Origin: Bacteroidales bacterium
GTDB taxonomy: Bacteria > Bacteroidota > Bacteroidia > Bacteroidales > WRLA01
Reading direction: 5' to 3'
Assembly (NCBI GenBank): GCA_965230045.1
Contig: OZ245940.1
Span: 1,999,403 to 2,063,402 of the forward strand
Length of the DNA: 64,000 nt
The notes beneath the pieces are model-generated. The model was not told where the DNA came from. It ran no database searches and worked only from the letters and a program-made list of their open reading frames with translations. Below are positions 1 to 18,233 of this stretch, piece after piece. A program made the position numbers and the translations under genes. Position 1 is the first letter of the stretch, and each line of letters begins with the position of its first letter.

Positions 1-135
1 AGCTTACTAAAGTAAGTGACTGGTTTCAATACCAAGAATAACGCTGAGATCGGACATTATGGACAAGCACTATTTAGTGTCTGTCTATAAAGTCGGGTTT
101 CTGATTCAGAATGTTCGAGGTCGAGGCATTTCTTT
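1..135. mobile_element. Two abutting fragments of MITE family A (subtype A1): the right part of one copy (1..70, cut by the window edge), a TATTTA junction (71..76), and the left ~57 bp of a second copy (77..~135)
   Basis: 1..70 matches the right half of the complete copies at 29554..29696 and 46931..47073 (cttactaaagtaag loop, aacgctgagatcggacattatggac terminus). 77.. starts with the family terminus gtgtctgtctataaagtcggg...gaggtcgaggcat and then breaks off. Confidence 0.6.
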
Positions 136-140
136 TTGAT

Positions 141-627
141 ATTTCACTATTGTTCGAGCATCATATCAGGAAGTTGCTAAAACAAAGGTTTATGCTTTTC
201 CCAAAAAAAATTCTGTATCCCAAACGGCATATATGAAAACAATATTTATCCTGACGTCGTTATTGATTATGGCAATGATTGTATTGGAGTCTATGATGTG
301 AAGTATAAAAAGTTTGATTTTTTAAATGGCGTTAATCGTGAAGACAGATTTCAGTTAATAACTTATGCTGCCTCATATCTTAGAAAATACAAAATTATTG
401 ACAGTGGAATCATATACCCTATTGGTGAATCAAATTGTGATAAAATCAATGCTATAAAACCTCAGTATCTTTGGGTTGGTAATATTAAGATTCCTTTTAA
501 GGTCAGGTTTTATAAAATCAAGCAAGATATTGCTTGGCAAAGGATAGTTGGTAATAATTTTTTGGATAAATTCTTTTGCAATTTGAAAGAAATTACTTCT
601 TCTACGGAAGAGAAATTGATTAATTGA
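141..627 (+). pseudogene. McrC-like / PD-(D/E)XK restriction-endonuclease C-terminal remnant, 5'-truncated by the MITEs and frameshifted
   Basis: Frame 1 reads ...NIYPDVVIDYGNDCIGVYDVKYKKFDF...REDRFQLITYA, a D...D-x-K core followed by a Q-x-x-x-Y motif as in McrC-type nucleases. Upstream, frame 3 reads LFEHHIRKLLKQRFMLFPKK up to an A8 run (203..210). No N-terminal half is present. Confidence 0.4.
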
Positions 628-639
628 AAAACACCATCT

Positions 640-1548
640 ATGTCCCAACAAGGCACCATAAAACGATATACGCTCATTATTGAGAAGATCAATAACGGAC
701 AGTTTCCTGGTTTTGAAGAGATCAGGAGCTTCCTTTTTGAACAGGGTTTTGAAGTCAGTAAGCGAACCGTGCAGCGCGATATTGAGCAAATACGCACGGA
801 GTTTGGGCTGGAGATTGTATATGAGCGCCATAGGAACGGTTACTTTATCGACTTTGAGGAAAGCTACAATACAGATGCCTTTTTTCGCTTTCTGGAAATT
901 GTAAATACGGCTGAAATGCTCAAAACAAGCCTCTCGGAGAGCAAAGAAAGCCTGCGCTATATTTCTTTTGATGATGGTGGAGGATTGCGGGGCGTTTCTC
1001 AACTGGGACCTTTGCTCAAAGCTGTACGCGAGAAATGCTATATTTCATTTCGGCATCAAAGCTATTTCAGGGATAAAGCCAGGCGATACACCATAAAACC
1101 CTATTTGCTGAGGGAGTATCTGAACCGCTGGTATGTTATTGGGCTGATCGGGCCAATGAAAGAATTCCGGACTTTTGGCATCGACCGGATCACCGAACTG
1201 GAAGTGAAAGCAAAATCTTTTGAGCCTCATGCCGAGCTGGATGCGCGGGAAGCTTTCCGGAATATTATTGGCTTGGTTTATTCAATGAGCGCTGTGCAAT
1301 CTGTTATCCTTTCTTTCACCCCGGAGCAGGGAAAATACATTAAGAGCCTGCCTTTGCATCACAGCCAGGAGGTTTTGATTGACGATGAAAAAGAATGCCG
1401 CATCAAGCTGAGAGTCATTCCAAATTTAGAACTCAAACAGCAAATCCTGATGCAGGGAGATCGCGTAAAGGTGATTGAGCCTCAGTGGCTGGTGGAGGAA
1501 ATCAAGGAAATTTTATTAAAAAGCCTGGAACGATATTCCTCAGAATAA
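640..1548 (+). CDS. WYL-domain transcriptional regulator (N-terminal wHTH + WYL + C-terminal extension)
   Basis: HTH segment SKRTVQRDIEQIRTEFG. WYL-type segment RYTIKPYLLREYLNRWYVIGL...FRTFGIDRI. C-terminal KVIEPQWLVEEIKE. Starts 12 nt after the upstream ORF stop. Confidence 0.85.
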   Translation: MSQQGTIKRYTLIIEKINNGQFPGFEEIRSFLFEQGFEVSKRTVQRDIEQIRTEFGLEIVYERHRNGYFIDFEESYNTDAFFRFLEIVNTAEMLKTSLSESKESLRYISFDDGGGLRGVSQLGPLLKAVREKCYISFRHQSYFRDKARRYTIKPYLLREYLNRWYVIGLIGPMKEFRTFGIDRITELEVKAKSFEPHAELDAREAFRNIIGLVYSMSAVQSVILSFTPEQGKYIKSLPLHHSQEVLIDDEKECRIKLRVIPNLELKQQILMQGDRVKVIEPQWLVEEIKEILLKSLERYSSE

Positions 1549-1566
1549 TTTTGTTTTTCGCTTGAA

Positions 1567-1602
1567 TACGCCATAGTTTGGCGTAGTACAGGGATAATTT
1601 TG
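1567..1602 (+). promoter_or_regulatory. Putative promoter/operator of the ATPase-protease operon: inverted repeat TACGCCA-N5-TGGCGTA (1567..1585) and a Bacteroidota-type -7 box TAATTTTG (1595..1602)
   Basis: The palindrome was read directly. TAATTTTG fits TAnnTTTG and lies 18 nt upstream of the ATG at 1620. Confidence 0.35.
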
Positions 1603-1619
1603 TCATCGATAAAAATAAT

Positions 1620-3665
1620 ATGATGGCAAAAGAAAACAATCAATCAAAACACATTCAACAGAAATACAAAGTCCTTGAGAATGCAAGGCAAACCCTCAAA
1701 AAAGAATTCATTGGCATAGATGGGATTATTGATGAAATCATTGAAAATGTAAGTGCCTGGTATTTGATGCCGCAACTTTTGGAGCGTCCGGTTGTGATCA
1801 ACCTTTGGGGTCTGACCGGAGTAGGAAAAACATCGGTGGTCAACCGTTTGGCCGAACTGCTCGATTATAAGAGTTTATACTACCGCTTCGATTTAGGCGA
1901 AAAAGAAAAGGGATATTCATTTGGGAGTACAGTGGATGAAATTAAAGAAAATGAAGAAGAAGAACCCATAATTTTCGCTCTGGATGAAATTCAGCAATGT
2001 CGGACAAAAATAGCTTCACGTCCTACTTTTCAGGACAAAAACCGGATGGTTTGGGATTTACTGGATAACGGCAAAATACAGTTTGTTGAATACTCACACG
2101 AACTTTGGCGAATTAAAAACCTGACATGGCGGCTCTACCAATTCATATTATTGGGCATCAAAGTAAAAGACGGCATTGTTTGTAGTCATAAGCAACAATA
2201 TCGGGATGAATTTGATGTGGATGATGATGAAGCGATTCTGCGTTTTATTCCGGAAAAGTATTATACATACATTATCAATCTGGCAGGCGATAAATTAAAT
2301 TTAAGCCTAAAGCAGGATCTTGAGAAAATCCTTTTGTCTGGAACCGCTGAAGAAAATATACAATTCCTTAAAAAAGTCATTAAAATAGGAAACGGGCCAA
2401 AAGTGGCGAATTTTTCAAAAGCTCTGATTTTTGTTTTGGGTAACCTGGATGAGGCATATAGCATGAGCGGCAATTACAGCTCTGATATGGATGCAGATGT
2501 TTTCCACCGTCTGTCAATCAAATTAAACGTTCCCAGAATCAAAAGTACCCTGGGCAAAATGTTTCGGGACGAACAGGTTGCCCGCCTTGGCAATATCCAT
2601 ATTATCTATCCGGCACTGAGCCGGAATTCCTATGAGCTGATTATTAAAAAAGAGCTTCATCAGCTTGCTCTTCAATTAAACAAACACTTTAATGTTCTGA
2701 TCGAATTTAGCGACAGTATTCATCAACTCATCTATGAAGAAGGTGTTTACCCCAGCCAGGGTGTTCGTCCGGTTTTTACCACCATTCATCAGATATTAAA
2801 AAGTACATGCAGTAACTTTTATGCGCAGATTTTAGCAAAAAATATAGATGCCGACAAACTTTTGTTTGAGCGTGCCGGCAACAAAATAAGGTGTATCTGC
2901 AAAAAGCTGAATCAAAGTGTATTTATACTGGAGTCAACCATAAAAACTTCCCTGGGCGATTTGCGCAAAAACAGAATGGACGATTTACAAGCAATTACTG
3001 CTGTTCACGAAAGTGGCCACGCTGTTTTATCCATTTCTTTGCTGGGAACAATTCCTGAAGCTGTTTATTCGGTCAGCTCCGATGCGGACAAGCATGGTTT
3101 TGTTTATTTCGAAGATGAATGGCCATTTATACCTCGCAAAGAAATCACGGCACGGGCAGCCGTATTGCTTGGAGGTTTTGTTGCTGAAAAGCTGATTTTT
3201 GGTCAGGAAAACCAAACCAATGGTTCCGAATCGGATATAAGCAAAGCAACTCAACTATTGCAATTTGCTTTTGCTAACTCAGGATTTGGAAAGCATCCCA
3301 TTCAATATGGTTTGCCGGTTTACGAGACGAAGGAAACCTACCATAATTATCAGGAAATGGAGGCTCAGGTCAAGGAGAGCCTGCAGAAATCTCTTCAACT
3401 GGCAGAACAGTGCCTCCAAAAGGAGTTTGCCCTCTTGCTAAAAATGTCTGATTACTTAAGTAAAAACAGCGTTCTTTCAAAAGCAAAAATCAAAGAATTA
3501 ACTGAAAAATACCTACAGGGATCAGGCGCTGAAAATGATAAATGGAACAGCTCTTTTTATCGGGATCAACTAAAAAACAAAATCCGGGAGTACGGAGACG
3601 AAGAACCTAACAATAAAGCAGTAGGTAATTCATTGATACTCAATAGCGATAAGAATACAGCCTAA
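1620..3665 (+). CDS. Soluble P-loop AAA+-type ATPase fused to an FtsH-type (M41) zinc metalloprotease domain; no TM segment
   Basis: Walker A LWGLTGVGKTS (K70, nt 1827..1829). Walker B PIIFALDEIQ. Lid-like MFRDEQVARLGNIHIIYPAL. Protease half: ITAVHESGHAV (HESGH at nt 3006..3020), AAVLLGGFVAEKLIFG, GSESDISKATQLL. These parallel FtsH HEAGHA / LLGGRAAEE / ASNDIxxAT. Confidence 0.85.
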   Translation: MMAKENNQSKHIQQKYKVLENARQTLKKEFIGIDGIIDEIIENVSAWYLMPQLLERPVVINLWGLTGVGKTSVVNRLAELLDYKSLYYRFDLGEKEKGYSFGSTVDEIKENEEEEPIIFALDEIQQCRTKIASRPTFQDKNRMVWDLLDNGKIQFVEYSHELWRIKNLTWRLYQFILLGIKVKDGIVCSHKQQYRDEFDVDDDEAILRFIPEKYYTYIINLAGDKLNLSLKQDLEKILLSGTAEENIQFLKKVIKIGNGPKVANFSKALIFVLGNLDEAYSMSGNYSSDMDADVFHRLSIKLNVPRIKSTLGKMFRDEQVARLGNIHIIYPALSRNSYELIIKKELHQLALQLNKHFNVLIEFSDSIHQLIYEEGVYPSQGVRPVFTTIHQILKSTCSNFYAQILAKNIDADKLLFERAGNKIRCICKKLNQSVFILESTIKTSLGDLRKNRMDDLQAITAVHESGHAVLSISLLGTIPEAVYSVSSDADKHGFVYFEDEWPFIPRKEITARAAVLLGGFVAEKLIFGQENQTNGSESDISKATQLLQFAFANSGFGKHPIQYGLPVYETKETYHNYQEMEAQVKESLQKSLQLAEQCLQKEFALLLKMSDYLSKNSVLSKAKIKELTEKYLQGSGAENDKWNSSFYRDQLKNKIREYGDEEPNNKAVGNSLILNSDKNTA

Positions 3666-3669
3666 AAAT

Positions 3670-4665
3670 ATGCAAGCCAAACTAATACCTTTGAAGAAAG
3701 TTTTTGAGAAGCATAATCTTTACAGGCTTTTTGATATTGACTTCGATAAGGCAGAGACGGTAGTGTGGCTATACAGACATGAACAACGTCTTTTCTGTCT
3801 CTTTAAATCCAAGGGCAAGTACCTGCTTCTTCATACCGATGGTTACCATTTTTGGTGTCGGGATACTGTCTATTGGGAGTATTACATTTATGATTCCTTG
3901 CATGAATCCTTCCGGAACATCAATCAGTTGTTTTACGATAGCATACCTTATTATGGTGTATGTAATCAAAGTAGAAGACAACTGGAGTATTGGATGAATA
4001 TAATCCCGGTTTGGGCAATATTGAGACCCAGATATTTATCAGTAATAGCCAGGGCGTATATACATGATCGTTTATCAAGCTTACAGGATACACCTAATTC
4101 AAATGAAGTGGCCTGGTTTGTGGATTCTGTGTATAAAATTTTCTGGAAAGAGTATTTTTTCAAAAAAAGCAGTAGCCAAATTGCTTCAATTCAGCCAATA
4201 TTACAGGATTTGGTCATAAAATGTATCGCTAAGAAAAAGTATCATGAAATTTACAAAAAAATTTGCAATGTAAAGACCGGATCATTTGTAATTGACTCTT
4301 TTACTTTGATTTATGATGATTGCAGTCAGATAGAATTTGAGATGGAAAGACAAAGATACAAGGAGATGATCAAGATATCGCCGGGAGATTACTCAGATTT
4401 TCTGATCAAAGAGGAGCAAATTCGGTCTAGTGACCAATTTTTGAATGAGCTTGAATGTAGCAATGGTGTAAAATTTACAAGTATAAAATTAAGGATTGAA
4501 TACGATTTGTACATTGATGGTTCGATGGAATTTGAGTACGATCAATACACGAATAAACTTGGTGAAAGATTTCGAGCCATTTATTATCAGATTGTTAAAG
4601 AGAAAATAATTGATGAAGATAGTATAGAAAACATGCCCATTTATAAGTTATTGAAGGGGACGTAG
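3670..4665 (+). CDS. Hypothetical 331-aa protein, operonic partner of the ATPase-protease
   Basis: A long ORF starting 4 nt after the upstream stop. Visibly rich in W/Y/F. No signal peptide, TM segment or catalytic motif recognised. Confidence 0.7.
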   Translation: MQAKLIPLKKVFEKHNLYRLFDIDFDKAETVVWLYRHEQRLFCLFKSKGKYLLLHTDGYHFWCRDTVYWEYYIYDSLHESFRNINQLFYDSIPYYGVCNQSRRQLEYWMNIIPVWAILRPRYLSVIARAYIHDRLSSLQDTPNSNEVAWFVDSVYKIFWKEYFFKKSSSQIASIQPILQDLVIKCIAKKKYHEIYKKICNVKTGSFVIDSFTLIYDDCSQIEFEMERQRYKEMIKISPGDYSDFLIKEEQIRSSDQFLNELECSNGVKFTSIKLRIEYDLYIDGSMEFEYDQYTNKLGERFRAIYYQIVKEKIIDEDSIENMPIYKLLKGT

Positions 4666-4704
4666 CATTGAAGCCCTGCGGGAAAGTGTGTAATTTAGCC
4701 CTGT

Positions 4705-6097
4705 GGGAGTATTCAGAAAAGTGTGTCAGCTGCTTGCCCTGCAACGCCCTGGAGCCTTGGCGGAAGGGCGTTGCAGGGCAAATATAAGCAATTATAAATA
4801 GCGGGCATAACGGTCTCCAAATTTTTCGATGAGTTCTCTCTGTATGGACCCCCAATTGAAGGCCTTGCGCTTCCAGCTTTTTTTGTTGTGCATCAATGCT
4901 AGATACAGCTGTTTTATCAGTCCTTTGTCGTTGCTCCAGGCTCCTTTGGACTTGGTTATCTTGCGCATAATACGATGCACTGCCTCAACTGGATTGGTGG
5001 TGTAGATCATCCGCCTGATATGATGCCCATAGTCCATAAACGCCATCAGTTCCTCCCAGTTTTCCTCCCATTTTGGACGGATGTTTTTGTATTTGCCGTC
5101 CCATTTCTGTCCAAATGATATTAAAGCTGTTTCGGCTTGTTGCCTGTTTGCTGCTGTATAGATCTTACGCAGATCAGAGCAAAGAGCCTTCCTGTCTTTG
5201 TCGCTTACAAAGCGGGTAGATGTGCGTACCATATGCACTATGCAGCGCTGTACAATGGCTTTGGGATAAACCTGGCCTATAACCCCGGAAAAGCCTTTAA
5301 GCCCATCTACACAAAAAAACAAAACTTCCTCTACGCCACGTTCCTTAAGGTCTTCCAGGATCATGCCCCACTGGTTGGCCCCTTCTGATTCGTTTATGTA
5401 AAGCCCAAGGATATCGCGTTGGCCTTCAGCGTCTATGCCATAACATGTATAGATGGCTTTGCTGATAATATGACCCGCTTCGCGGACTTTAAAGTGAACA
5501 GCATCAAGGTATATGACACTGTAGCACGGAAATAGCAACCGCTGCTGCCATTGGGTAATTTCAGGCCATACACGGTCGGTTACCGAACTGATTACTCCGG
5601 CGCTTATTTCAAGCCCATATAGGTGCTGCAACTGGTAGCGCACATCCTCAACTGATTGACCGCGGGCGTATAGGCTTAGGATTATTTCATCTACCCCGTT
5701 CCCAAGGTCCCTGTCCCACTTTTTAACCAAAATCGGCTCATGGTCGCCTTGGCGGTCACGCGGCGTGCGTACCTGCAGCGCTCCGGCAGCACTGCGTACT
5801 TTTTTCTCCGTATAGCCATTGCGCCGGTTGCCGCTGTCAACCTTTTGGCTTAAACTATGATTTATCTCGCCCTCTAAGGCTGCATTTACCATAGTTTGAA
5901 GCATCTCGCTGAAAACACTGCCTTCTCCAAATAAGGATTCTCCACTGTATAAGCGACTTAGTACTCTTTCTCGTAAATGCGCATCTGGTATCAACTCTTC
6001 CATGCGCGGGGATTTCTTGTTTTTCTTTCTTGTCATGTGTCAAATGTATTAATTCAGTTCTAATTCCCAAACATGACACACTTTTTTGAACAGCCTC
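4705..6097 (-). mobile_element. Intact IS256-family insertion sequence (1393 bp) with an 8-bp target-site duplication AGCCCTGT
   Basis: Direct repeats AGCCCTGT at 4697..4704 and 6098..6105. Imperfect terminal inverted repeats gggagtattcagaaaagtgtgtca / gaggctgttcaaaaaagtgtgtca (19 of 24 positions match). Confidence 0.9.
4792..6036 (-). CDS. IS256-family (mutator-type) transposase
   Basis: Typical IS256 segments: YLDAVHFKVRE...AIYTCYGIDAEGQRDILGLY, FFCVDGLKGF, VQRCIVHMVR, YTTNPVEAVHR. Confidence 0.95.
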   Translation of the reverse strand: MTRKKNKKSPRMEELIPDAHLRERVLSRLYSGESLFGEGSVFSEMLQTMVNAALEGEINHSLSQKVDSGNRRNGYTEKKVRSAAGALQVRTPRDRQGDHEPILVKKWDRDLGNGVDEIILSLYARGQSVEDVRYQLQHLYGLEISAGVISSVTDRVWPEITQWQQRLLFPCYSVIYLDAVHFKVREAGHIISKAIYTCYGIDAEGQRDILGLYINESEGANQWGMILEDLKERGVEEVLFFCVDGLKGFSGVIGQVYPKAIVQRCIVHMVRTSTRFVSDKDRKALCSDLRKIYTAANRQQAETALISFGQKWDGKYKNIRPKWEENWEELMAFMDYGHHIRRMIYTTNPVEAVHRIMRKITKSKGAWSNDKGLIKQLYLALMHNKKSWKRKAFNWGSIQRELIEKFGDRYARYL

Positions 6098-6173
6098 AGC
6101 CCTGTACTAAGAAGTGAGACCATTATAACTGTTACTCATTAGGTAAACAAGCTCAATTATTTTCATTTATAAT

Positions 6174-6668
6174 TTAGAATGAGTCAAATCCTTTTTGTGT
6201 TAAAACCATGCAAAAAACATGTCTGTCTTCAGTTGTAATTAAATCATTTTCAACCAATCTCTCAATTGCTCTTTCAATCAAAGCATTTTCTTTAGGATTT
6301 AACCATTTACTTAAGTTAAAGTTAATCCATCTATAATCGACAACATGATTAACTTTTGAATTAGTATCAGCAAATTGTTGCATAATTATACTACCAATTC
6401 TTTCAATTACTTCATCTTCATTAATTGGGTAGATTGCATCAAATCCTTTCTCAGTCAAAACTAAACAGAATCCACTTCTGTCATCGGTTTTTATTAAACC
6501 ATCATTTACTAAATCATTAATTGCTGGATTAATTAAATTTTGCTCTTTGGCGTTTAACTGTCTTAATAGTACTTGGTTTATCCACCTTTCTTGAATTACG
6601 TGCTTGGGTTTTGAATTTGTTTCTACAAACTGATTCATTATCAAATTTGCAATATCATTTTGTGTCAT
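6174..6668 (-). CDS. Hypothetical protein built from two tandem ~80-aa repeats
   Basis: The two halves align (QFVETNSKPKHVIQERWIN...LVNDGLIKTDDRSGFCLVLTEKGFD versus QFADTNSKVNHVVDYRWIN...LVENDLITTEDRHVFCMVLTQKGFD). The DNA is AT-rich relative to its neighbours. Confidence 0.65.
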   Translation of the reverse strand: MTQNDIANLIMNQFVETNSKPKHVIQERWINQVLLRQLNAKEQNLINPAINDLVNDGLIKTDDRSGFCLVLTEKGFDAIYPINEDEVIERIGSIIMQQFADTNSKVNHVVDYRWINFNLSKWLNPKENALIERAIERLVENDLITTEDRHVFCMVLTQKGFDSF

Positions 6669-6867
6669 GTTTTATTGTTTTATAATTAATTCTACTTTAC
6701 GAACTTAATTTTTGTGGTTTAATGGTCTAATTTGCTTTAAACGAGTAAAAAGGGTTGAAAGATGGATATTCCGGACTAAACCGACCCACCCGACCGGCTG
6801 AAATAAACAGCAATAAAAAGCCATCAAAGACTGCCAATCCGGCGAATACTGCCCCATTGAAACGGAA

Positions 6868-6946
6868 AAAGGTACTTCAGGCAAACAAATCCGGGCTATG
6901 TTGACCCTTATTTATCGCTTTTTTTTGCCCGGCACGCAATCACAAG
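6868..6946. repeat. 79-bp direct repeat, copy 1 (partner at 8382..8460)
   Basis: aaaggtacttcaggcaaacaaatccgggctatgttgacccttatttatcgcttttttttgcccggcacgcaatcacaag versus the near-identical string at 8382..8460. Confidence 0.8.
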
Positions 6947-7303
6947 TTTGTTAATTTCTTCGATACTTAAGCCGGTGATTTCCTGGATAATATCAATTTC
7001 CATTCCTTTAAGGAGCAGATTCCTTGCTAAGGATAATTTTTCTTCTTTTCTGCCTTCTTCCCTGCCTTTAATTAGTGTTTGTCCATAGAGTCGAGAGTTT
7101 GCTCTATAAAGTTCAAATTCAAGGCGTGTGAAAAATCTAAACCGCAGTATACTAGGGTATATGAGGATTTAGATTTTGAGCAACAACGCAGAAGTTGGAC
7201 TTTATAGACGAACTCTAATTAGCCCCTTTTCTTCTGCCCAGTCAATGGAGTTTTTGATATCGTTGAGGATATCCGGATTGAAATTGTATTTTCTCCCGGT
7301 CAT
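6908..7303 (-). pseudogene. Truncated Rpn-family C-terminal paralogue, split by a MITE
   Basis: Reads MTGRKYNFNPDILNDIKNSIDWAEEKGLI, then the MITE, then KGREEGRKEEKLSLARNLLLKGMEIDIIQEITGLSIEE. This matches the C-terminus of the intact neighbour at 7308..8270. Confidence 0.7.
7075..7215. mobile_element. MITE family A, subtype A3, with a TAATTA target duplication (7069..7074 and 7216..7221)
   Basis: Termini gtgtttgtccatagagtcg ... ggactttatagacgaactc. The same element occurs at 29703..29843. The uninterrupted homologous site is at 7532..7537. Confidence 0.85.
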
Positions 7304-7307
7304 TGTC

Positions 7308-8270
7308 TCAGAGTTCATCCTGTAGTTTGCTGATTTCTTCCAGGCTTAAGCCGGTGATTTCCCGGATAATATCAATTTCCATATCTTTAAGGAACAGATT
7401 CCTTGCTAAGGATAATTTTTCTTCTTTTCTGCCTTCTTCCCTGCCTTCTTCCCTGCCTTCTTTTCTACCTCTAATAATTCCTTTCTTCTCTCCCTCAATC
7501 AGCCCTTCTTGTTTGCCTTCTTCCCTGCCTTTAATTAGCCCCTTTTCTTCTGCCCAGTCAATGGAGTTTTTGATATCGCGATAGGCATTTAGGCTGAACT
7601 GATATTCTTTGTACTCCTTTGAATCCAAACGGGCAATTTCTGCCGTTTCAAAGAATTTAAGGAAAACCTGTTCCCTCAGTTTTTCAGGCACGCGGTCCAA
7701 GCGGTTTAGGTTTTTGATCACATAAAGCCATTTTTCAAATTTGCTTTCCAGCTCCGATAGCTCCTTGCTGAATTTGGGCATAGCGAGATAAATGTAAGTG
7801 AGCTTGTCGTAGAAAATATCCTTGCTGTCCAAATCACAGATCTTCGCATCGAAACGGTATTTGTCCTCCGGGCTCTCGTCGCCCTTAAACACGAAATCCA
7901 AAATACCAATGGTATAAACGTGCTTGAGCTCAAAATTCCAGTCTTTGCCTTTGTCTTTTGCCTGCTCCTGAATCGGGAAAGTAGAATAAAAAACAGTGCG
8001 ATCCTTGAAATACTTCTGTTCTGCCTTTTGCATTTCCACAATGAAACGCTCGCCCTTTTCGTTTTTGCAGTAAATATCAAAAATAGCCCTGCGGTCGCCC
8101 AAGGCAATCGGCAGGTTTTCGTTGGGCAAATACGACAGCTCCACAATGTTGCCTTCCTGCTCGCGCAACAGCTCGTTCAGGAAATCCTGCAATAAATCCT
8201 TGCTGGGCTCCTCGCCAAACAATCGTTTAAAACCGTAATCCGTAAAAGGATTGATGTATTTTTCTTTCAT
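7308..8270 (-). CDS. Rpn-family recombination-promoting nuclease / PD-(D/E)XK putative transposase
   Basis: N-terminus MKEKYINPFTDYGFKRLFGEE...LLQDFLNELL with IFDIYC...FIVEMQ core. C-terminal E/G/K-rich repeat and LSLEEISKL tail. Confidence 0.85.
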   Translation of the reverse strand: MKEKYINPFTDYGFKRLFGEEPSKDLLQDFLNELLREQEGNIVELSYLPNENLPIALGDRRAIFDIYCKNEKGERFIVEMQKAEQKYFKDRTVFYSTFPIQEQAKDKGKDWNFELKHVYTIGILDFVFKGDESPEDKYRFDAKICDLDSKDIFYDKLTYIYLAMPKFSKELSELESKFEKWLYVIKNLNRLDRVPEKLREQVFLKFFETAEIARLDSKEYKEYQFSLNAYRDIKNSIDWAEEKGLIKGREEGKQEGLIEGEKKGIIRGRKEGREEGREEGRKEEKLSLARNLFLKDMEIDIIREITGLSLEEISKLQDEL

Positions 8271-8381
8271 AGCTAAAGTGCTGGTTCACAAAAATAATAC
8301 ATTATAGGCACTAAAATCAATTTTAGCAAAAGCTTTTTGATATTATGAGAGCACAACAGGCAACTGACCCTTTAAAAGAAT

Positions 8382-8460
8382 AAAGGCACTTCAGGCATCC
8401 AAATCCGGGGCATATTGACCCTTATTTATCGCTTTTTTTTGCCCGGCAACCGATCACAAG
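8382..8460. repeat. 79-bp direct repeat, copy 2 (partner at 6868..6946)
   Basis: Same orientation and near-identical sequence. The two copies bracket the Rpn gene and its truncated paralogue. Confidence 0.8.
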
Positions 8461-8593
8461 ATGGCGAATGATCAATAAAAAAAACGCTGCAACACTCCTG
8501 CAACACATCAACAACATTATTGCACAACTGCTACAGGAGCCTTGCTTATTACGGACACTATGGCAAACGTATCTAAATTTGCTGTTATATTGA

Positions 8594-8873
8594 ATGGATA
8601 TACTCTCTTGTCAAGCTTACCGGAGGACATTTGTCTCCATTATTGGCAAAACAATAAAAGGAGCAAAATCCATGGTAAAAAAAATCCTTATTCACTCATT
8701 AAACGCCTGGGCAGCTGAAAGTGGTCTGGTTTTAGGGCATGTCAAAACGGATGGAAGTCAAATAAGATTACTGCAACTCCAAAATGCTGAATTTACTGAT
8801 GCTGAAAAACGAAAAACCTTGAAATCAGGAGATAAAGGTAAAGTGCCAGAGGCTGGTTTTATGAAAGTACTTA
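8594..8873 (+). pseudogene. ISAs1-family transposase remnant (central fragment only)
   Basis: SIIGKTIKGAKS...ILIHSLNAWAAESGLVLGHVKTDG resembles the ISAs1 segment AIDGKTLRGS...HLVSA...GLVLGQ.KV. The expected KSNEITAIP follows only in another frame (KSNKITATP). The DDE domain is missing and the ORF runs into a MITE. Confidence 0.45.
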
Positions 8874-9015
8874 GTTTCCGTCTATAAAGTCCGCTAACTT
8901 CGTTACGCTTGCCCGAAAAATGCTCATTTACACCAGTAAACTCTGCTTTTTCGGGCTGCGCAAGCCTCGTTATCGAACTTTCTAGCTCAGAAACACGACA
9001 TTATAGACAGACACT
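8874..9015. mobile_element. MITE family A, subtype A2 (inverted), with TSD TACTTA (8868..8873 and 9016..9021)
   Basis: Reverse complement of the copies at 29407..29547 and 51103..51243. A perfect 6-bp duplication flanks it. Confidence 0.85.
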
Positions 9016-9107
9016 ACTTAATTAATGATGCGTTGCCTTATTAAAATTGTTCCACCGTTTTGGTAATTCGGTTTTATCCTTTTACCTTTACAAACAAACG
9101 AACTCTT

Positions 9108-10124
9108 ATGTCACGAAAGATTGTAATGCTTGTTGATGAGCGGACACTGCCAAACCTGCAGTTTATACATGAATTTGGCGCCGGTGCAGATGAATACATC
9201 TTTATAACCACCCGAAAAATGGAAGTGCCGGACGCCAATCGGGTGAACTGGATTATAAAATCTGCTGGAATTGATGATGAAAAATGTAGCCGGCTGGTAT
9301 GTGACCCTCACGGTATTAGCCAAACTTCCCAGCAACTTTCAGGTTTGAACCTTGATTTGGCTAATGAGTACCTGGTGCATATTACTTGCGGAACAAAAAT
9401 TATGGCTTTGGCGGCCTATAGTTTTTTCGGTCGTTTCCCGAAAGCAAGGATTATCTTCAGCTTTTTGGGTGAAGGCTCATACCGTCAGCTCCATCCGCAT
9501 ATTACGAGGGCGGAGCATGAATATAAAACCAAACCCTCGCTCAAAGCTTCATTGCTTGCGCATGGGTTAAAAATAGCTTTTGCAGACAGGAAGCTAACAG
9601 ATGCAGGCATGGGGCGTCATTTGATGGATGAATGCATCAAAAACAATAACCGTCAAAACCATATTCCTGAGATACGAAAGGCCATGAAATGCATCACGCC
9701 CGAAGAGCGATCCTATTTTAGCGGAGGTTGGTTTGAAGAATATGTTTATGATCGTATCAAAACTGAGTTGAAACTGGCTGATGATCAGATTGCTATGAAA
9801 GTAAGCGTGCGAAAAGCAGAAGTTTATAATGAGTTTGATGTGATTTTCCTCTACCGTGACCGCATTCATGTGGTAGAGTGCAAAGCATATTTTTCACGGC
9901 ATAACCTCAAAACAAAGGTAGAAGGAGCTTTGTATAAACTGGGTGCTTTGGATGATAAATTTGGCATGAACACCCGATCTTTGTTTTTTACAAACCTTGA
10001 TTTTGCGCGTGACGATATCCGTTTGAATGAAGTGTTGCGGGCACGGGCCAAGGACCTGAAGGTGCGCTTTGTTGATATGTCGGATATACGGGAAAGGCGC
10101 CTGAACCTTTCCGTACATGAATAA
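9108..10124 (+). CDS. CARF-like domain + PD-(D/E)XK nuclease protein (Card1/Can2-like, DUF1887-type)
   Basis: N-terminus KIVMLVDERTLPNLQFI...EYIFITT follows the DUF1887/CARF start pattern. C-terminal nuclease core EFDVIFLYRDRIHVVECKAY (nt 9831..9890). The ATG at 9108 is preferred over the TTG at 9060. Confidence 0.7.
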   Translation: MSRKIVMLVDERTLPNLQFIHEFGAGADEYIFITTRKMEVPDANRVNWIIKSAGIDDEKCSRLVCDPHGISQTSQQLSGLNLDLANEYLVHITCGTKIMALAAYSFFGRFPKARIIFSFLGEGSYRQLHPHITRAEHEYKTKPSLKASLLAHGLKIAFADRKLTDAGMGRHLMDECIKNNNRQNHIPEIRKAMKCITPEERSYFSGGWFEEYVYDRIKTELKLADDQIAMKVSVRKAEVYNEFDVIFLYRDRIHVVECKAYFSRHNLKTKVEGALYKLGALDDKFGMNTRSLFFTNLDFARDDIRLNEVLRARAKDLKVRFVDMSDIRERRLNLSVHE

Positions 10125-10176
10125 AAAAAGCACCTGTAATAGTTGCAGATGCTTTTTGGTGGAATAAATGTCTTGC

Positions 10177-10812
10177 TTATTTTTTTGCCAGGTAAGATGA
10201 AACTCCTTCCTGAGTTGGTTTCATTGCTTCATCACCTTTGTGCCAGTCGGCAGGGCAAACTTCACCGTTTTCTTCGAAGAACTGAAGTGCATCGATCATG
10301 CGGAGCGTTTCCTCAACACTTCTGCCCAGTGGCATATCATTAACAACCTGATGACGCACAACGCCTTGCTTGTCGATGAGGAAAAGACCACGATACGAAA
10401 CGGCTTCACCATCAAATGTGCTCAGGTCGTCCTCTTCATCATAATCATATTCACCGGCCAAAACATCGTAATTTTCTGATATAGTTTTGCTTAGGTCAGA
10501 AACCAGGGGAAATTTTACGCCTTGGATCCCGCCTTTGTTTTTTTCGGTATTTAACCAGGCAAAATGGGAAAATTTTGAATCAACGGAACAGCCAACAACA
10601 GCTACATTGCGTTTTTCAAATTCTTCTATTTTATCCTGAAATGCAATGATTTCGGTAGGACAGACAAAAGTGAAATCGGCAGGGTAGAAGAAGAAAATGA
10701 CGTGTTTTTTCCCAATAAATTGCTCCAATGAAAATTTTTCGACGAATTCGCAGCCGTTAATCACAGCATCTGCTTCGAAATGAGGGGCTTTTTTACCAAC
10801 TAATACGGACAT
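10177..10812 (-). CDS. Typical 2-Cys peroxiredoxin (AhpC/Prx1 family)
   Basis: FFFYPADFTFVCPTEI peroxidatic Cys motif and GEVCPADW resolving Cys motif. Confidence 0.95.
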   Translation of the reverse strand: MSVLVGKKAPHFEADAVINGCEFVEKFSLEQFIGKKHVIFFFYPADFTFVCPTEIIAFQDKIEEFEKRNVAVVGCSVDSKFSHFAWLNTEKNKGGIQGVKFPLVSDLSKTISENYDVLAGEYDYDEEDDLSTFDGEAVSYRGLFLIDKQGVVRHQVVNDMPLGRSVEETLRMIDALQFFEENGEVCPADWHKGDEAMKPTQEGVSSYLAKK

Positions 10813-10920
10813 AATTCTTGTAATTTTGTTTTTTATTGATTTTCTGTTCTTTAGATATTACAAATCTACAAATTTATTGTTTTTCCACACTGCATTAACA
10901 AGCAAAGCAGTCAGTTGTTT

Positions 10921-12405
10921 TTAGTTTAACAGGTTTTTTTCATCGAACTCGATGGTGCTGTTGTTTCTGAAGTTGAAGAGGGTCAGCTTTCGCACAGTAT
11001 AGTAGTATTGCCAATAGGTTTCCAGGGCATTGTAATACGATATTTTTGACCGATCGAAACTTTGCTGAGCTTCGGTAAGTTTAAGCACATCATTAATTTT
11101 ACCGATCATATAGCGTTTGCGGGTGATTTCATAGCTTTTGCGCGCAACGGTATCGGCTTTGGCTGCGATGGTCAGAAGTTGGTTCTGCATATTGAAATTA
11201 GCAGTTTGAAGGTATATATTTTGTTCAAAATCAATCCGTTCCTGTTCAACCCTGATATATTCCAGTTCACGGCCTGATTCTGCCATTTTAATTCTTCCTT
11301 TGGATCTTCCCCAGTCCAGAATTGGAACAGATATCCCTACATTTACCTGCTGTTGGTCTAGTGGTTTTTTATATGCATCAGAAAGTTCTTCAGCAGATTG
11401 AGTCAATCCGAAAACGGCATAGATATTAGCGTCAAAGCGTCCCTGCATTTTTGCATAATTCAGGCTTTTGTCCGCTTCCAGGAGCCTTCGCTCAAACTCC
11501 ATGCCGCTGGATGTATTGGTGTGGGCAAGCTCAATGGCTTCTTCAATATTAACCTGAAATGGATTGCTTTCTGCAGGTGGGATGAGCTTTACCTCGAGAT
11601 TATGGGGCAATCGCAGGAAGCTCAGGAATCTTTGTAACTGGCTGTTGTAATTGAGTTTGGCCTGCTCCAGGTCTGATTGGGCGTTTAAAAGTTTTAGCTC
11701 CAAATTAAGTACTTCATCTTCAGAGGTTTTGCCCATATTGTAACGGCCTTTGCCAATAAAAAACAAAGTGTCATAATATGCAACATTTTCTTCCGCAATA
11801 TCGGTTTGTACCTGTGCGACCAGCAAATTAAAAAAGTTTCTAATGGATGTCAGTGCCACATCCTCCATGTCTTCCAAATATACGCGTTTCGCCTTTTCAT
11901 ATTTTAAAGGCTCAATCCTTTTTGCCCATTTATAATCGTTGTACTGAAAGATAGGTTGGTTATAGCTGATATTGACGGGTGTGCTCAGGTAACTTGTTTG
12001 CGTGATGGTATCAAAAATATTATCGGTTCGCCTTAATCCGCTGTTGAGTGATATAACCCCACCGGTTAGCCCAATATTTTGCTGCAGTGAAAGTTGTCCG
12101 GAAAAAGAGGTGTATTTCTGTTCTTTGTATTCGATGGTTCCATCCGGCTGCGTAACCTCATTAATTGCCCTGTTAAAATTTGGAAGGGTGGCATCAACAC
12201 TGAGCAAGGGGAGGTAATTTGCTTTAAAAGTTCGGAATTCCCAAAAGCTTTGCCTGAATGTATGCTTGGCAATCAAAGCAATGTTGGACCTTTGTTGGGC
12301 AACTGTTATTACTTCATCAAGAGTAAAAACCCGTTCTTCCTGTGCCTTTACAAAAGGGCAGGAGAGGAGTATGAGCAGGATGGTCAGTATATTTAATATT
12401 TTCAT
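10921..12405 (-). CDS. TolC-family outer-membrane efflux protein
   Basis: Signal peptide and two-repeat coiled-coil/beta-barrel pattern. Last gene of the MFP-permease-OMP operon. Confidence 0.85.
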   Translation of the reverse strand: MKILNILTILLILLSCPFVKAQEERVFTLDEVITVAQQRSNIALIAKHTFRQSFWEFRTFKANYLPLLSVDATLPNFNRAINEVTQPDGTIEYKEQKYTSFSGQLSLQQNIGLTGGVISLNSGLRRTDNIFDTITQTSYLSTPVNISYNQPIFQYNDYKWAKRIEPLKYEKAKRVYLEDMEDVALTSIRNFFNLLVAQVQTDIAEENVAYYDTLFFIGKGRYNMGKTSEDEVLNLELKLLNAQSDLEQAKLNYNSQLQRFLSFLRLPHNLEVKLIPPAESNPFQVNIEEAIELAHTNTSSGMEFERRLLEADKSLNYAKMQGRFDANIYAVFGLTQSAEELSDAYKKPLDQQQVNVGISVPILDWGRSKGRIKMAESGRELEYIRVEQERIDFEQNIYLQTANFNMQNQLLTIAAKADTVARKSYEITRKRYMIGKINDVLKLTEAQQSFDRSKISYYNALETYWQYYYTVRKLTLFNFRNNSTIEFDEKNLLN

Positions 12406-18160: not shown

Positions 18161-18233
18161 TTGTCCCATTAGGGCTCGAACCTAAACTCTTCTGAACCAA
18201 AATCAGACGTGTTGCCAATTACACCATGGGACA
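18161..18233 (-). tRNA. tRNA-Gln (anticodon UUG)
   Basis: Folded by hand. Acceptor TGTCCCA/TGGGACA (U1-A72), D stem GTGT/ACAC, anticodon stem TCTGA/TCAGA with loop TTTTGGT (anticodon TTG), T arm TTAGG-TTCGAGC-CCTAA. CCA is not encoded. Confidence 0.9.

Follow-up and report, generated by a model that had tools for sequence, protein, structure and literature searches.

We analyzed a 64,000-nucleotide stretch of a Bacteroidales genome (contig OZ245940.1, positions 1,999,403 to 2,063,402; called the window here), in which three genes had been proposed to form an uncharacterized defense-type operon. The original prediction described three co-directional open reading frames (ORFs) with gaps of 71 nucleotides (nt) between genes 1 and 2 and 4 nt between genes 2 and 3, and we confirmed these coordinates:

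Positions 640-1548, plus strand: gene 1, 302 amino acids (aa)
Positions 1620-3665, plus strand: gene 2, 681 aa
Positions 3670-4665, plus strand: gene 3, 331 aa

We found that the conserved unit at this locus is a pair, not three genes. The pair consists of a WYL-domain regulator (gene 1) and an AAA-M41 protease (gene 2), and it is located in accessory, insertion sequence (IS)-ridden, defense-island-like DNA. It looks like a module for responding to nucleic acid damage or for defense rather than a three-gene defense system. Thus, the proposal of an uncharacterized defense-type operon stands for the pair and its accessory setting and falls for the three-gene system.

Gene 1 matched the Pfam models WYL (PF13280; 47.1 bits, cutoff 21.8) and WCX (PF25583; 44.9 bits, cutoff 23.9), both above cutoff, and HTH_11 at 23.8 bits, slightly below the cutoff of 25. 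The WYL segment and C-terminal extension claimed for this protein are therefore both present, with the helix-turn-helix near threshold. Across 29 gene 1 homologues, R42, T43, and R46 in the presumed recognition helix and W164, Y165, and R183 in the WYL domain were invariant. The ratio of nonsynonymous to synonymous substitution rates (dN/dS) was 0.11 against the copy in the sister locus, L001, and at other loci the WYL proteins linked to the protease reach 64% identity with gene 1, so that the regulator is more conserved than the protease. We built a profile from 29 linked WYL proteins and searched it against the Protein Data Bank (PDB). The best match was PafBC (1.4e-13), and further matches included DriD (3e-10, a modest similarity that spans WYL and WCX), CapW (1.4e-4), and BrxR (2e-4). 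The scores of PafBC and DriD therefore surpass those of CapW and BrxR by 5 to 9 orders of magnitude.

The sequence upstream of gene 2 contains two elements:

Positions 1569-1583: putative WYL operator, a 15-bp palindrome, CGCCA-TAGTT-TGGCG, of the pattern CGNCA-N5-TGNCG
Positions 1595-1602, plus strand: Bacteroidota-type −7 element TAATTTTG, which matches the consensus TAnnTTTG

The published Bacteroidota −7 consensus is TAnnTTTG (PMC7366714). The palindrome starts 51 nt before the gene 2 ATG and lies 11 nt from the −7 element, which is itself 17 nt before the ATG. In 1.24 Mb of related loci, we found 95 exact copies of CGNCA-N5-TGNCG where Markov-1 simulations gave an expectation of 4.0±1.4, a 24-fold excess. 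Among the 70 protease loci that are not linked to RtcB (see below), an exact box starts 48 to 62 nt upstream of the protease ATG in 46, and a box with at most one mismatch lies 44 to 71 nt upstream of the AAA-M41 ATG in 57. In the consensus of the 58 promoters that we aligned, A.T.CG.CAT..TTTGGCG.A-N9-TA..TTTG, TAnnTTTG sits at a constant 11 nt from the box and the TTTG within the box is conserved, always on the gene-proximal side. The 64-kb window holds one exact box only, and one-mismatch boxes in it are no more frequent than expected by chance; a box belonging to gene 1 itself is therefore not recognizable here. A scan for σ70 promoters and terminators gave counts equal to the shuffle level and was uninformative; promoters in Bacteroidota are of a type other than σ70.

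The box links the window to known WYL regulators. The DdaA box is CGWCA-N5-TGWCG, and the DriD box is CGAC-N7-GTCG (PMC12392091); the window box is the published DdaA box, and its geometry is that of the DriD box. DriD sites lie across the −35 position, and their spacing to the −10 element is fixed (PMC13004042). The boxes described here have that layout, covering the −35-equivalent region at constant spacing from the −10-equivalent element. DriD and DdaA are WYL activators of non-SOS DNA damage responses; DdaA also controls restriction-modification, Zorya, and CRISPR-Cas loci, and its regulons combine DNA damage and defense genes, with an "ftsH" gene among the targets in basal lineages (PMC12392091). 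Gene 1 shares with DriD (Caulobacter) and DdaA (Moraxellaceae) its predicted winged helix-turn-helix (wHTH)-WYL-WCX architecture, the box, and, across its relatives, a regulon that mixes restriction and defense genes with damage response genes. It differs from them in belonging to the Bacteroidota/FCB group with a σABfr-type promoter and in being a local, island-borne regulator for which we saw no recA or uvrA targets. The repressors CapW (CBASS) and BrxR (BREX) share with gene 1 its predicted three-domain architecture and its defense island setting, and their operators are likewise palindromes located in the promoter of the neighboring operon, but their profile similarity is much weaker, the window box is that of the activator group, and PADLOC and Pfam scans found no BREX or CBASS component among the window genes. 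Because of the box identity and the profile similarity, we assigned gene 1 to the DriD/DdaA group: judged from these comparisons, it is a predicted wHTH-WYL-WCX transcription factor that resembles DriD, DdaA, and PafBC more than BrxR and CapW. The BrxR/CapW-type regulator of the original prediction thus holds as an architecture and not as the closest relative. The WYL domain is a sensor of single-stranded DNA (ssDNA) in DriD, DdaA, and CapW (for CapW, PMC11662680), and WYL regulators of defense operons are already established (PMC11662680).

We found that gene 2 has an unusual chimeric build. It matched Peptidase_M41 (PF01434; 55.7 bits, cutoff 29.9) at aa 457-627 and the ClpB_D2-small lid (26.8 bits, cutoff 21.9) at aa 333-399. 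Generic AAA and P-loop models matched around Walker A, and the classical AAA model PF00004 scored 19.1, under its cutoff of 21.2. In NCBIfam, the ATPase half resembled the second ring of ClpA, ClpB, and ClpV, and the C-terminal third alone was FtsH-like; every NCBIfam score was far under the equivalog cutoff, including that of TIGR01241 (FtsH), at 43.7 versus 600 bits. With a profile of 24 gene 2 homologues searched against the PDB, FtsH structures matched aa 448-641 only, and D2 structures of Hsp104, ClpB, and ClpC matched aa 264-408. The alignment with T. maritima FtsH passes through HEsGH and the GAssDIekAT motif. An AlphaFold2 (AF2) model of gene 2 had a pLDDT (predicted local distance difference test) score of 72.8, and its top Foldseek matches were FtsH, YME1, and AFG3L2, followed by the second nucleotide-binding domain (NBD2) of ClpB. 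The approximate layout is an ATPase core at aa 55-330 with a helical insertion of ~100 aa (aa ~150-258), the lid at aa 333-399, a small β-domain at aa ~410-440, and the M41 domain at aa 457-627.

The residues expected of a working motor and protease are conserved. In all 79 full-length homologues of 79, we found G67, G69, and K70 (Walker A), D122 and E123 (Walker B), N275 (the sensor-1 Asn), R322, R383 (the sensor-2 Arg, in GVRP), and the zinc site residues H463, E464, H467, and D539. Accordingly, the motifs initially read in this protein (Walker A with K70, Walker B with D122/E123, and HESGH at aa 463-467) are real, and their invariance shows that motor and protease are both under selection. 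The dN/dS of gene 2 against the 95%-identical sister copy is 0.21. A transmembrane check found no hydrophobic segment over threshold (maximum KD19, 1.48, inside the M41 core), and the N terminus is polar; the claim that gene 2 lacks a membrane anchor holds. As judged from its sequence, gene 2 is a soluble fusion of a Clp-D2/HCLR-type AAA+ ATPase to an FtsH-type M41 zinc protease. An FtsH-derived ATPase does not fit its lid, its NCBIfam matches, or its PDB profile. Like FtsH, YME1, and AFG3L2, gene 2 has an M41 domain with HEXXH and a third-ligand Asp and an ATPase N-terminal to the protease, and these proteins are the best Foldseek match for its overall predicted fold. Unlike them, it has no transmembrane anchor and scores far under the FtsH equivalog cutoff, and its ATPase carries the ClpB_D2-small lid, the GVRP sensor-2, and the helical insertion of ~100 aa. 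It shares the lid, sensor-2, and arginine finger regions with the second NBD of ClpB, ClpC, and Hsp104, whereas its ATPase would form a single ring, has no N or M domain, and is covalently fused to its protease rather than docked to ClpP.

The gene 2 family is large. We found more than 2,000 matching proteins (clustered at 90% identity), typically of ~680 aa and ~50% identical, most of them labeled hypothetical or "FtsH" and some "cell division protease FtsH." In a collection with one genome per species, at least 228 stretches encode a relative; the names of these loci are overwhelmingly those of Bacteroidota, with no obvious mobile carrier. The relatives that we retrieved are nearly all from Bacteroidota, with a few from Chlorobiota, Ignavibacteria, and other bins. 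Named hosts of homologues include Mangrovibacterium lignilyticum, Confluentibacter citreus, and Dysgonomonas gadei. In phage record and plasmid collections, gene 2 matched only distant true FtsH genes, and the family was absent. The sole "gammaproteobacterial" locus (L041, from a bin labeled Luminiphilus sp.) has a frameshifted protease gene (493 + 185 aa). A search with its protease homologue returned exclusively Bacteroidota-type proteins, and this contig is probably misbinned.

No named system accounts for these genes. PADLOC (version 2.0.0, used for all PADLOC scans) found no named defense system for genes 1 to 3, in agreement with the original prediction, and NCBIfam and PHROGs gave none for genes 2 and 3. 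PADLOC reported a weak match of gene 2 aa 6-91 to DolB of Dodola (E, 6.4e-7). DolB is also a Clp-like ATPase, but the likeness is confined to that segment, and DolA matched neither gene 1, gene 3, nor the ORF upstream of gene 1. The IetAS system has a similar ATPase-plus-protease logic, but the gene 2 protease is of the M41 type and fused to its ATPase, and neither IetA (ATPase) nor IetS (subtilase) matched any of the three proteins in PADLOC. We rejected the vWA-MoxR "FtsH ternary systems" (PMC7159879) as a match; they have a classical FtsH ATPase and no WYL protein. In the literature that we searched, which did not extend to a key survey of RNA repair, the WYL-M41 pairing was not described.

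The WYL gene and the protease gene recur together with changing neighbors. Our locus set comprised 84 loci (the best 80 of the 228 stretches, three fetched earlier, and the window), two of them duplicates, and we clustered neighboring ORFs by BLASTP. A WYL/WCX gene of ~300 aa lies within five genes upstream of the protease gene in 43 of the 75 loci with enough upstream sequence and is immediately adjacent to it in 24. Frequently, one to three variable genes separate the two or come just downstream of the protease gene. They encode an RNase_T/DEDD exonuclease, GmrSD/DUF262 pairs, PDDEXK_4 nucleases (PADLOC candidate PDC-S26), DUF2779, a uracil-DNA glycosylase (UDG)-like protein, DUF429, McrB, DnaB_C, a UVR-motif protein, PcfJ, a cREC receiver, Mrr, HsdR, and HIRAN proteins. 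The PADLOC candidates among neighbors at other loci are PDC-S26, HEC-06, and PDC-S48. If cargo lies between the WYL gene and the protease gene, each unit has its own box, with a second box preceding the cargo. Boxes precede the GmrSD, DEDD exonuclease, DUF2779, PDDEXK_4, DnaB_C, UVR-motif, Mrr, HsdR, and HIRAN genes; some WYL genes have one as well.

Metagenomes were also scanned with one box variant plus the −7 pattern and no protein anchor, which yielded at least 120 contigs. A WYL homologue of the gene 1 family is present on 42 of 120 box-selected contigs, and so box and regulator travel together independently of the protease. The protease had seemed to be the commonest box target, an artifact of the protease-anchored survey that the box-only sample corrected. 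The commonest target is instead a soluble, classical-clade AAA ATPase (PF00004) of ~375 aa, found in 29 of 120 loci (for example, L146:3051-4205), with a Walker A motif of GKSGTGKT and a second-region motif of ALLRKGRL. Neither the protease-anchored loci nor the window contains it, and it looks like a second uncharacterized ATPase output of the same regulon. Box targets observed comprise restriction nucleases, DEDD and PDDEXK nucleases, HIRAN proteins, a UVR-motif protein, DnaB_C, and AAA ATPases.

In contrast to the pair, gene 3 is confined to one lineage. As had been noted of it, it contains no recognizable motif: Pfam, PADLOC, NCBIfam, and PHROGs gave no match. A word-indexed search returned one protein, and a full HMMER search of 1.84 billion representatives returned three (P0121, P0122, and P0123). 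P0121 and P0122 are the two halves of the sister genome's gene 3 copy, which is cut in two by an IS66 element and set apart from gene 2 by an ISL3 element. P0123 (177 aa) is 29% identical over aa 1-162 of gene 3 and lies directly downstream of a WYL gene that shares 72% identity with gene 1; the protease gene is missing there. That locus (L084:6775-8534) keeps the gene 1-gene 2 intergenic region, a degenerate box, and the first protease codons; the protease gene appears, from this sequence, to have been deleted. The dN/dS of gene 3 is 0.39. An AF2 model built on a four-sequence alignment had a pLDDT of 36.8 and was unusable for fold search. Gene 3 is probably cotranscribed with gene 2, given the 4-nt gap. 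Its distribution (this lineage only, IS disrupted in the sister, and a distant relative without the protease) contradicts the role of system partner given to it earlier and marks it as a predicted lineage-restricted accessory cargo of the WYL locus rather than a conserved partner.

A side observation concerns the DNA around gene 3, which has been struck independently by ISL3 and IS66 elements in L001 (12067-13284 and 14020-16936) and by an IS256-family element in the window (4705-6097). Window segments 4597-4704 and 6098-6759 are not in L001, and thus gene 3 ends differently in the two genomes, over its last 22 codons.

A protease of the gene 2 family is also part of RNA repair operons. We found the order rtcB-prfH-protease-kptA-tatD in 11 loci (Dysgonomonas, Tannerellaceae, Prevotella, and other Bacteroidales bins), in which PrfH scored 294.5 bits against a cutoff of 166.65 and KptA 258.7 against 239. 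In several of these loci the protease and kptA genes are 1 to 3 nt apart. None of them has a WYL gene or a box. The 11 loci form one clade nested inside the WYL/box-linked family, and the RNA repair arrangement is therefore derived. This distribution also speaks against reading the protease family as defense specific. RtcB2-PrfH is a known two-gene system that rescues and religates ribotoxin-cut ribosomes (PMC9304027); the published version has no protease, and the window copy has no RNA repair neighbors. Specifically, rtcB and prfH are absent from window positions 1-12000, with no RNA repair gene within 12 kb. At L027:12007-12372, a stand-alone gene for a cyclic-phosphate processing receiver (cREC) overlaps the protease stop codon by 4 nt, and at L030 a cREC gene of the same cluster follows the protease gene after a 51-nt gap. 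Both loci are WYL/box linked, and the cREC genes thereby form a bridge between the DNA damage and RNA repair contexts.

Viral contigs carry more distant homologues. Full-length proteins 27 to 35% identical are encoded on 18 IMG/VR contigs (L085 to L102), most of 85 to 519 kb, one of them labeled a giant virus metagenome-assembled genome (MAG). Walker A is intact in the viral homologues, and 3 of 17 lack an HExGH match. Genes for RtcB (L087 and L102), KptA (L097), an RF-1/PCRF-domain protein (L098), or cREC (L086 and L099) lie within ~6 kb of several of them, and a Band_7/SPFH gene is a neighbor in L096.

The following features surround the three genes in the window:

Positions 298-627, plus strand: short ORF, 109 aa; weak Pfam McrBC match (E, 0.043; profile positions 277-312 of 318)
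Positions 4705-6097, minus strand: IS256/Mutator-family insertion sequence (Transposase_mut, 311.7 bits); bounds the module, context only
Positions 7308-8270: PDDEXK_2 (Rpn-like) gene; profile match
Positions 9060-10124, plus strand: Card1-type CARF nuclease (CARF_Card1 and Card1_endonuc); profile match

The short ORF stops 12 nt upstream of gene 1. Of the decayed McrC-like gene reported there, the position stands and the McrC identity is weakly supported; the ORF is possibly a C-terminal remnant of an McrC-like gene and is probably outside the module. In L001, an McrB gene (AAA_5 and McrB_lid) lies two genes upstream of the WYL gene. The IS256-family element begins ~40 nt past the end of gene 3, close to the 39 nt first given, with a transposase ORF at 4792-6036 and 17-nt terminal inverted repeats at 4712-4728 and 6074-6090. 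Of the neighbors named, an Rpn-like nuclease and the CARF nuclease are likewise present. The CARF nuclease has no cas10 gene or CRISPR array in its immediate neighborhood and may be an orphan cyclic-oligoadenylate effector. A 164-aa ORF at 6174-6668 (minus strand) consists of two tandem winged-helix-like units with only weak HTH_27 and HTH_45 matches, and the DNA in this region is repeated (6159-6247 versus 6414-6502, 71% identity). An Rfam scan of the 64-kb window gave one tRNA gene as its sole match (18161-18233, minus strand). tRNA genes are common integration sites of islands.

Taking these data together, we consider the best explanation to be that gene 1 controls gene 2 and that gene 2 is the proteolytic arm of a response to nucleic acid damage or conflict, with a probability of roughly 60%. 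According to this model, a gene 1 dimer would bind the palindrome at 1569-1583, over the inferred −33 region of a Bacteroidota promoter, and control gene 2 and the cotranscribed gene 3. By analogy with DriD and DdaA, expression would be switched on when damaged or foreign nucleic acid (ssDNA) accumulates, and activation is the more likely mode over relief of repression. Gene 2 would be a cytosolic, presumably hexameric machine in which a Clp-D2-like ring unfolds proteins and feeds them into an FtsH-type zinc protease chamber. It may remove proteins that cause damage or are trapped by it, such as toxins, nucleases, stalled complexes, and nascent chains, while neighboring enzymes cut or repair nucleic acid, with gene 3 as a local add-on. 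In other Bacteroidota, the same regulator and box would drive swappable cargo (type IV and type I restriction nucleases, DEDD and PD-(D/E)XK nucleases, HIRAN proteins, and UDG-like proteins), and one derived protease clade has moved into rtcB-prfH-kptA-tatD operons for RNA and ribosome repair. We infer the DNA binding by gene 1, the ssDNA signal, the choice between activation and repression, the hexamer, and the substrates from sequence and from analogy.

Several observations weigh against this explanation. About 40% of protease loci have no nearby WYL gene, and 13 of 70 have no recognizable box. In the box-only sample, the protease is 4 of ~92 scorable genes downstream of a box and is present in 6 of 120 loci; it is one regulon member and not the hub. 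The box targets in the short loci sampled include no canonical DNA repair genes (recA and uvrA). The "ftsH" gene that DdaA controls may belong to a family other than that of gene 2. The gene-proximal TTTG could be the −33 promoter element itself, in which case occupancy of the box would be repressive, as with CapW and BrxR. Finally, gene calls in the locus set were crude longest-ORF calls, and many of the loci are short contigs of MAGs.

The point about TTTG leads to a CapW/BrxR-style model, in which gene 1 is a repressor sitting on the box and binding of ssDNA by its WYL domain releases the DNA and derepresses gene 2. The palindrome covers the −33 region with TTTG always gene proximal, and CapW and BrxR operate by such repression (PMC11662680). 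However, the box is shared with two experimentally shown activators and is placed like DriD sites on promoters without a −35 element, and the WYL profile favors PafBC and DriD by the margin given above. We regard repression as possible but doubtful. The rtcB-linked loci raise a different question, whether the protease is primarily an accessory of RNA repair and ribosome rescue that, once RNA has been cleaved, clears ribotoxins, ribosomal proteins, or nascent chains, with the WYL-linked copies responding to RNA rather than DNA damage. The 11 operons with their close protease-kptA spacing, the cREC gene coupled to the protease stop codon, the viral homologues near RtcB, KptA, RF-1, and cREC genes, and the repair of ribotoxin-cut ribosomes by RtcB2-PrfH (PMC9304027) are consistent with this. 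Nevertheless, the RtcB-linked loci are a single derived clade inside the WYL/box-linked family, the WYL-linked cargo is mostly DNA acting (GmrSD, Mrr, HsdR, McrB, HIRAN, and UDG-like proteins), and the window has no RNA repair gene nearby. An RNA-centered role therefore strikes us as rather unlikely.

A self-contained antiphage or abortive infection system, in which the WYL protein silences a toxic protease (with or without gene 3) until infection and the protease then expressed destroys host or phage proteins, would suit the defense-island-like setting (the Card1 CARF nuclease, the Rpn-like nuclease, and the ISs in the window; McrB upstream in L001) and the PDC-S26, HEC-06, PDC-S48, GmrSD, Mrr, and HsdR neighbors elsewhere. 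WYL control of defense operons is established (PMC11662680), and the N terminus of gene 2 is weakly like DolB (E, 6.4e-7). Against it, PADLOC matched no system, gene 3 is not conserved, and one protease clade sits in RNA repair operons with neither WYL gene nor box. Box and profile both place the regulator nearer the DriD/DdaA activators, whose targets include repair genes, and the protease family is absent from phage record and plasmid collections, its at least 228 loci showing no obvious mobile carrier. We judge such a system unlikely; defense may be a special case of the damage response, one that the data do not set apart. The protease might instead degrade the regulator or the products of its regulon and so terminate the response, by feedback or reset. 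The Pup-proteasome ends the PafBC regulon response, and PafBC and the proteasome system are encoded together. The genes for the WYL protein and the protease are tightly coinherited, and PafBC is the best PDB match of the WYL profile; still, the RtcB clade and the viral homologues retain the protease without a WYL gene, and no sequence feature marks the WYL protein as a substrate, which makes a reset device improbable. That gene 2 is an ordinary housekeeping FtsH paralogue placed in an island by chance might be suggested by homologues named "cell division protease FtsH," but it is refuted by the missing membrane anchor, an ATPase that is not of the FtsH type, a score of 43.7 bits against the 600-bit FtsH equivalog cutoff, and neighborhoods that are variable and accessory.

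The explanation that we prefer, control of gene 2 by gene 1 within a damage or conflict response, has wider implications. Very tentatively, and against our own expectation on balance, Bacteroidota and related phyla may have their own WYL-driven, non-SOS response to nucleic acid damage and invasion that uses the DriD/DdaA box, with a recurrent output, a soluble AAA+-M41 protease that clears damage-linked proteins and was also recruited to RtcB-PrfH-KptA operons and jumbo phage genomes. If this is true, the protease would be a general "protein cleanup" partner of nucleic acid repair in biological conflicts. The DriD/DdaA-type WYL regulon would extend from Alphaproteobacteria and Moraxellaceae to Bacteroidota, with a concrete operator and promoter now proposed for it, and the box can be used to discover new island cargo genes. 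The analysis also defines a large uncharacterized protease family, a Clp-type motor on an anchorless FtsH-type protease, whose members are routinely misnamed FtsH or "hypothetical." Its contexts (restriction and repair cargo, rtcB-prfH-kptA operons, and viral contigs) would offer a handle on the part that proteolysis plays in repair and defense.

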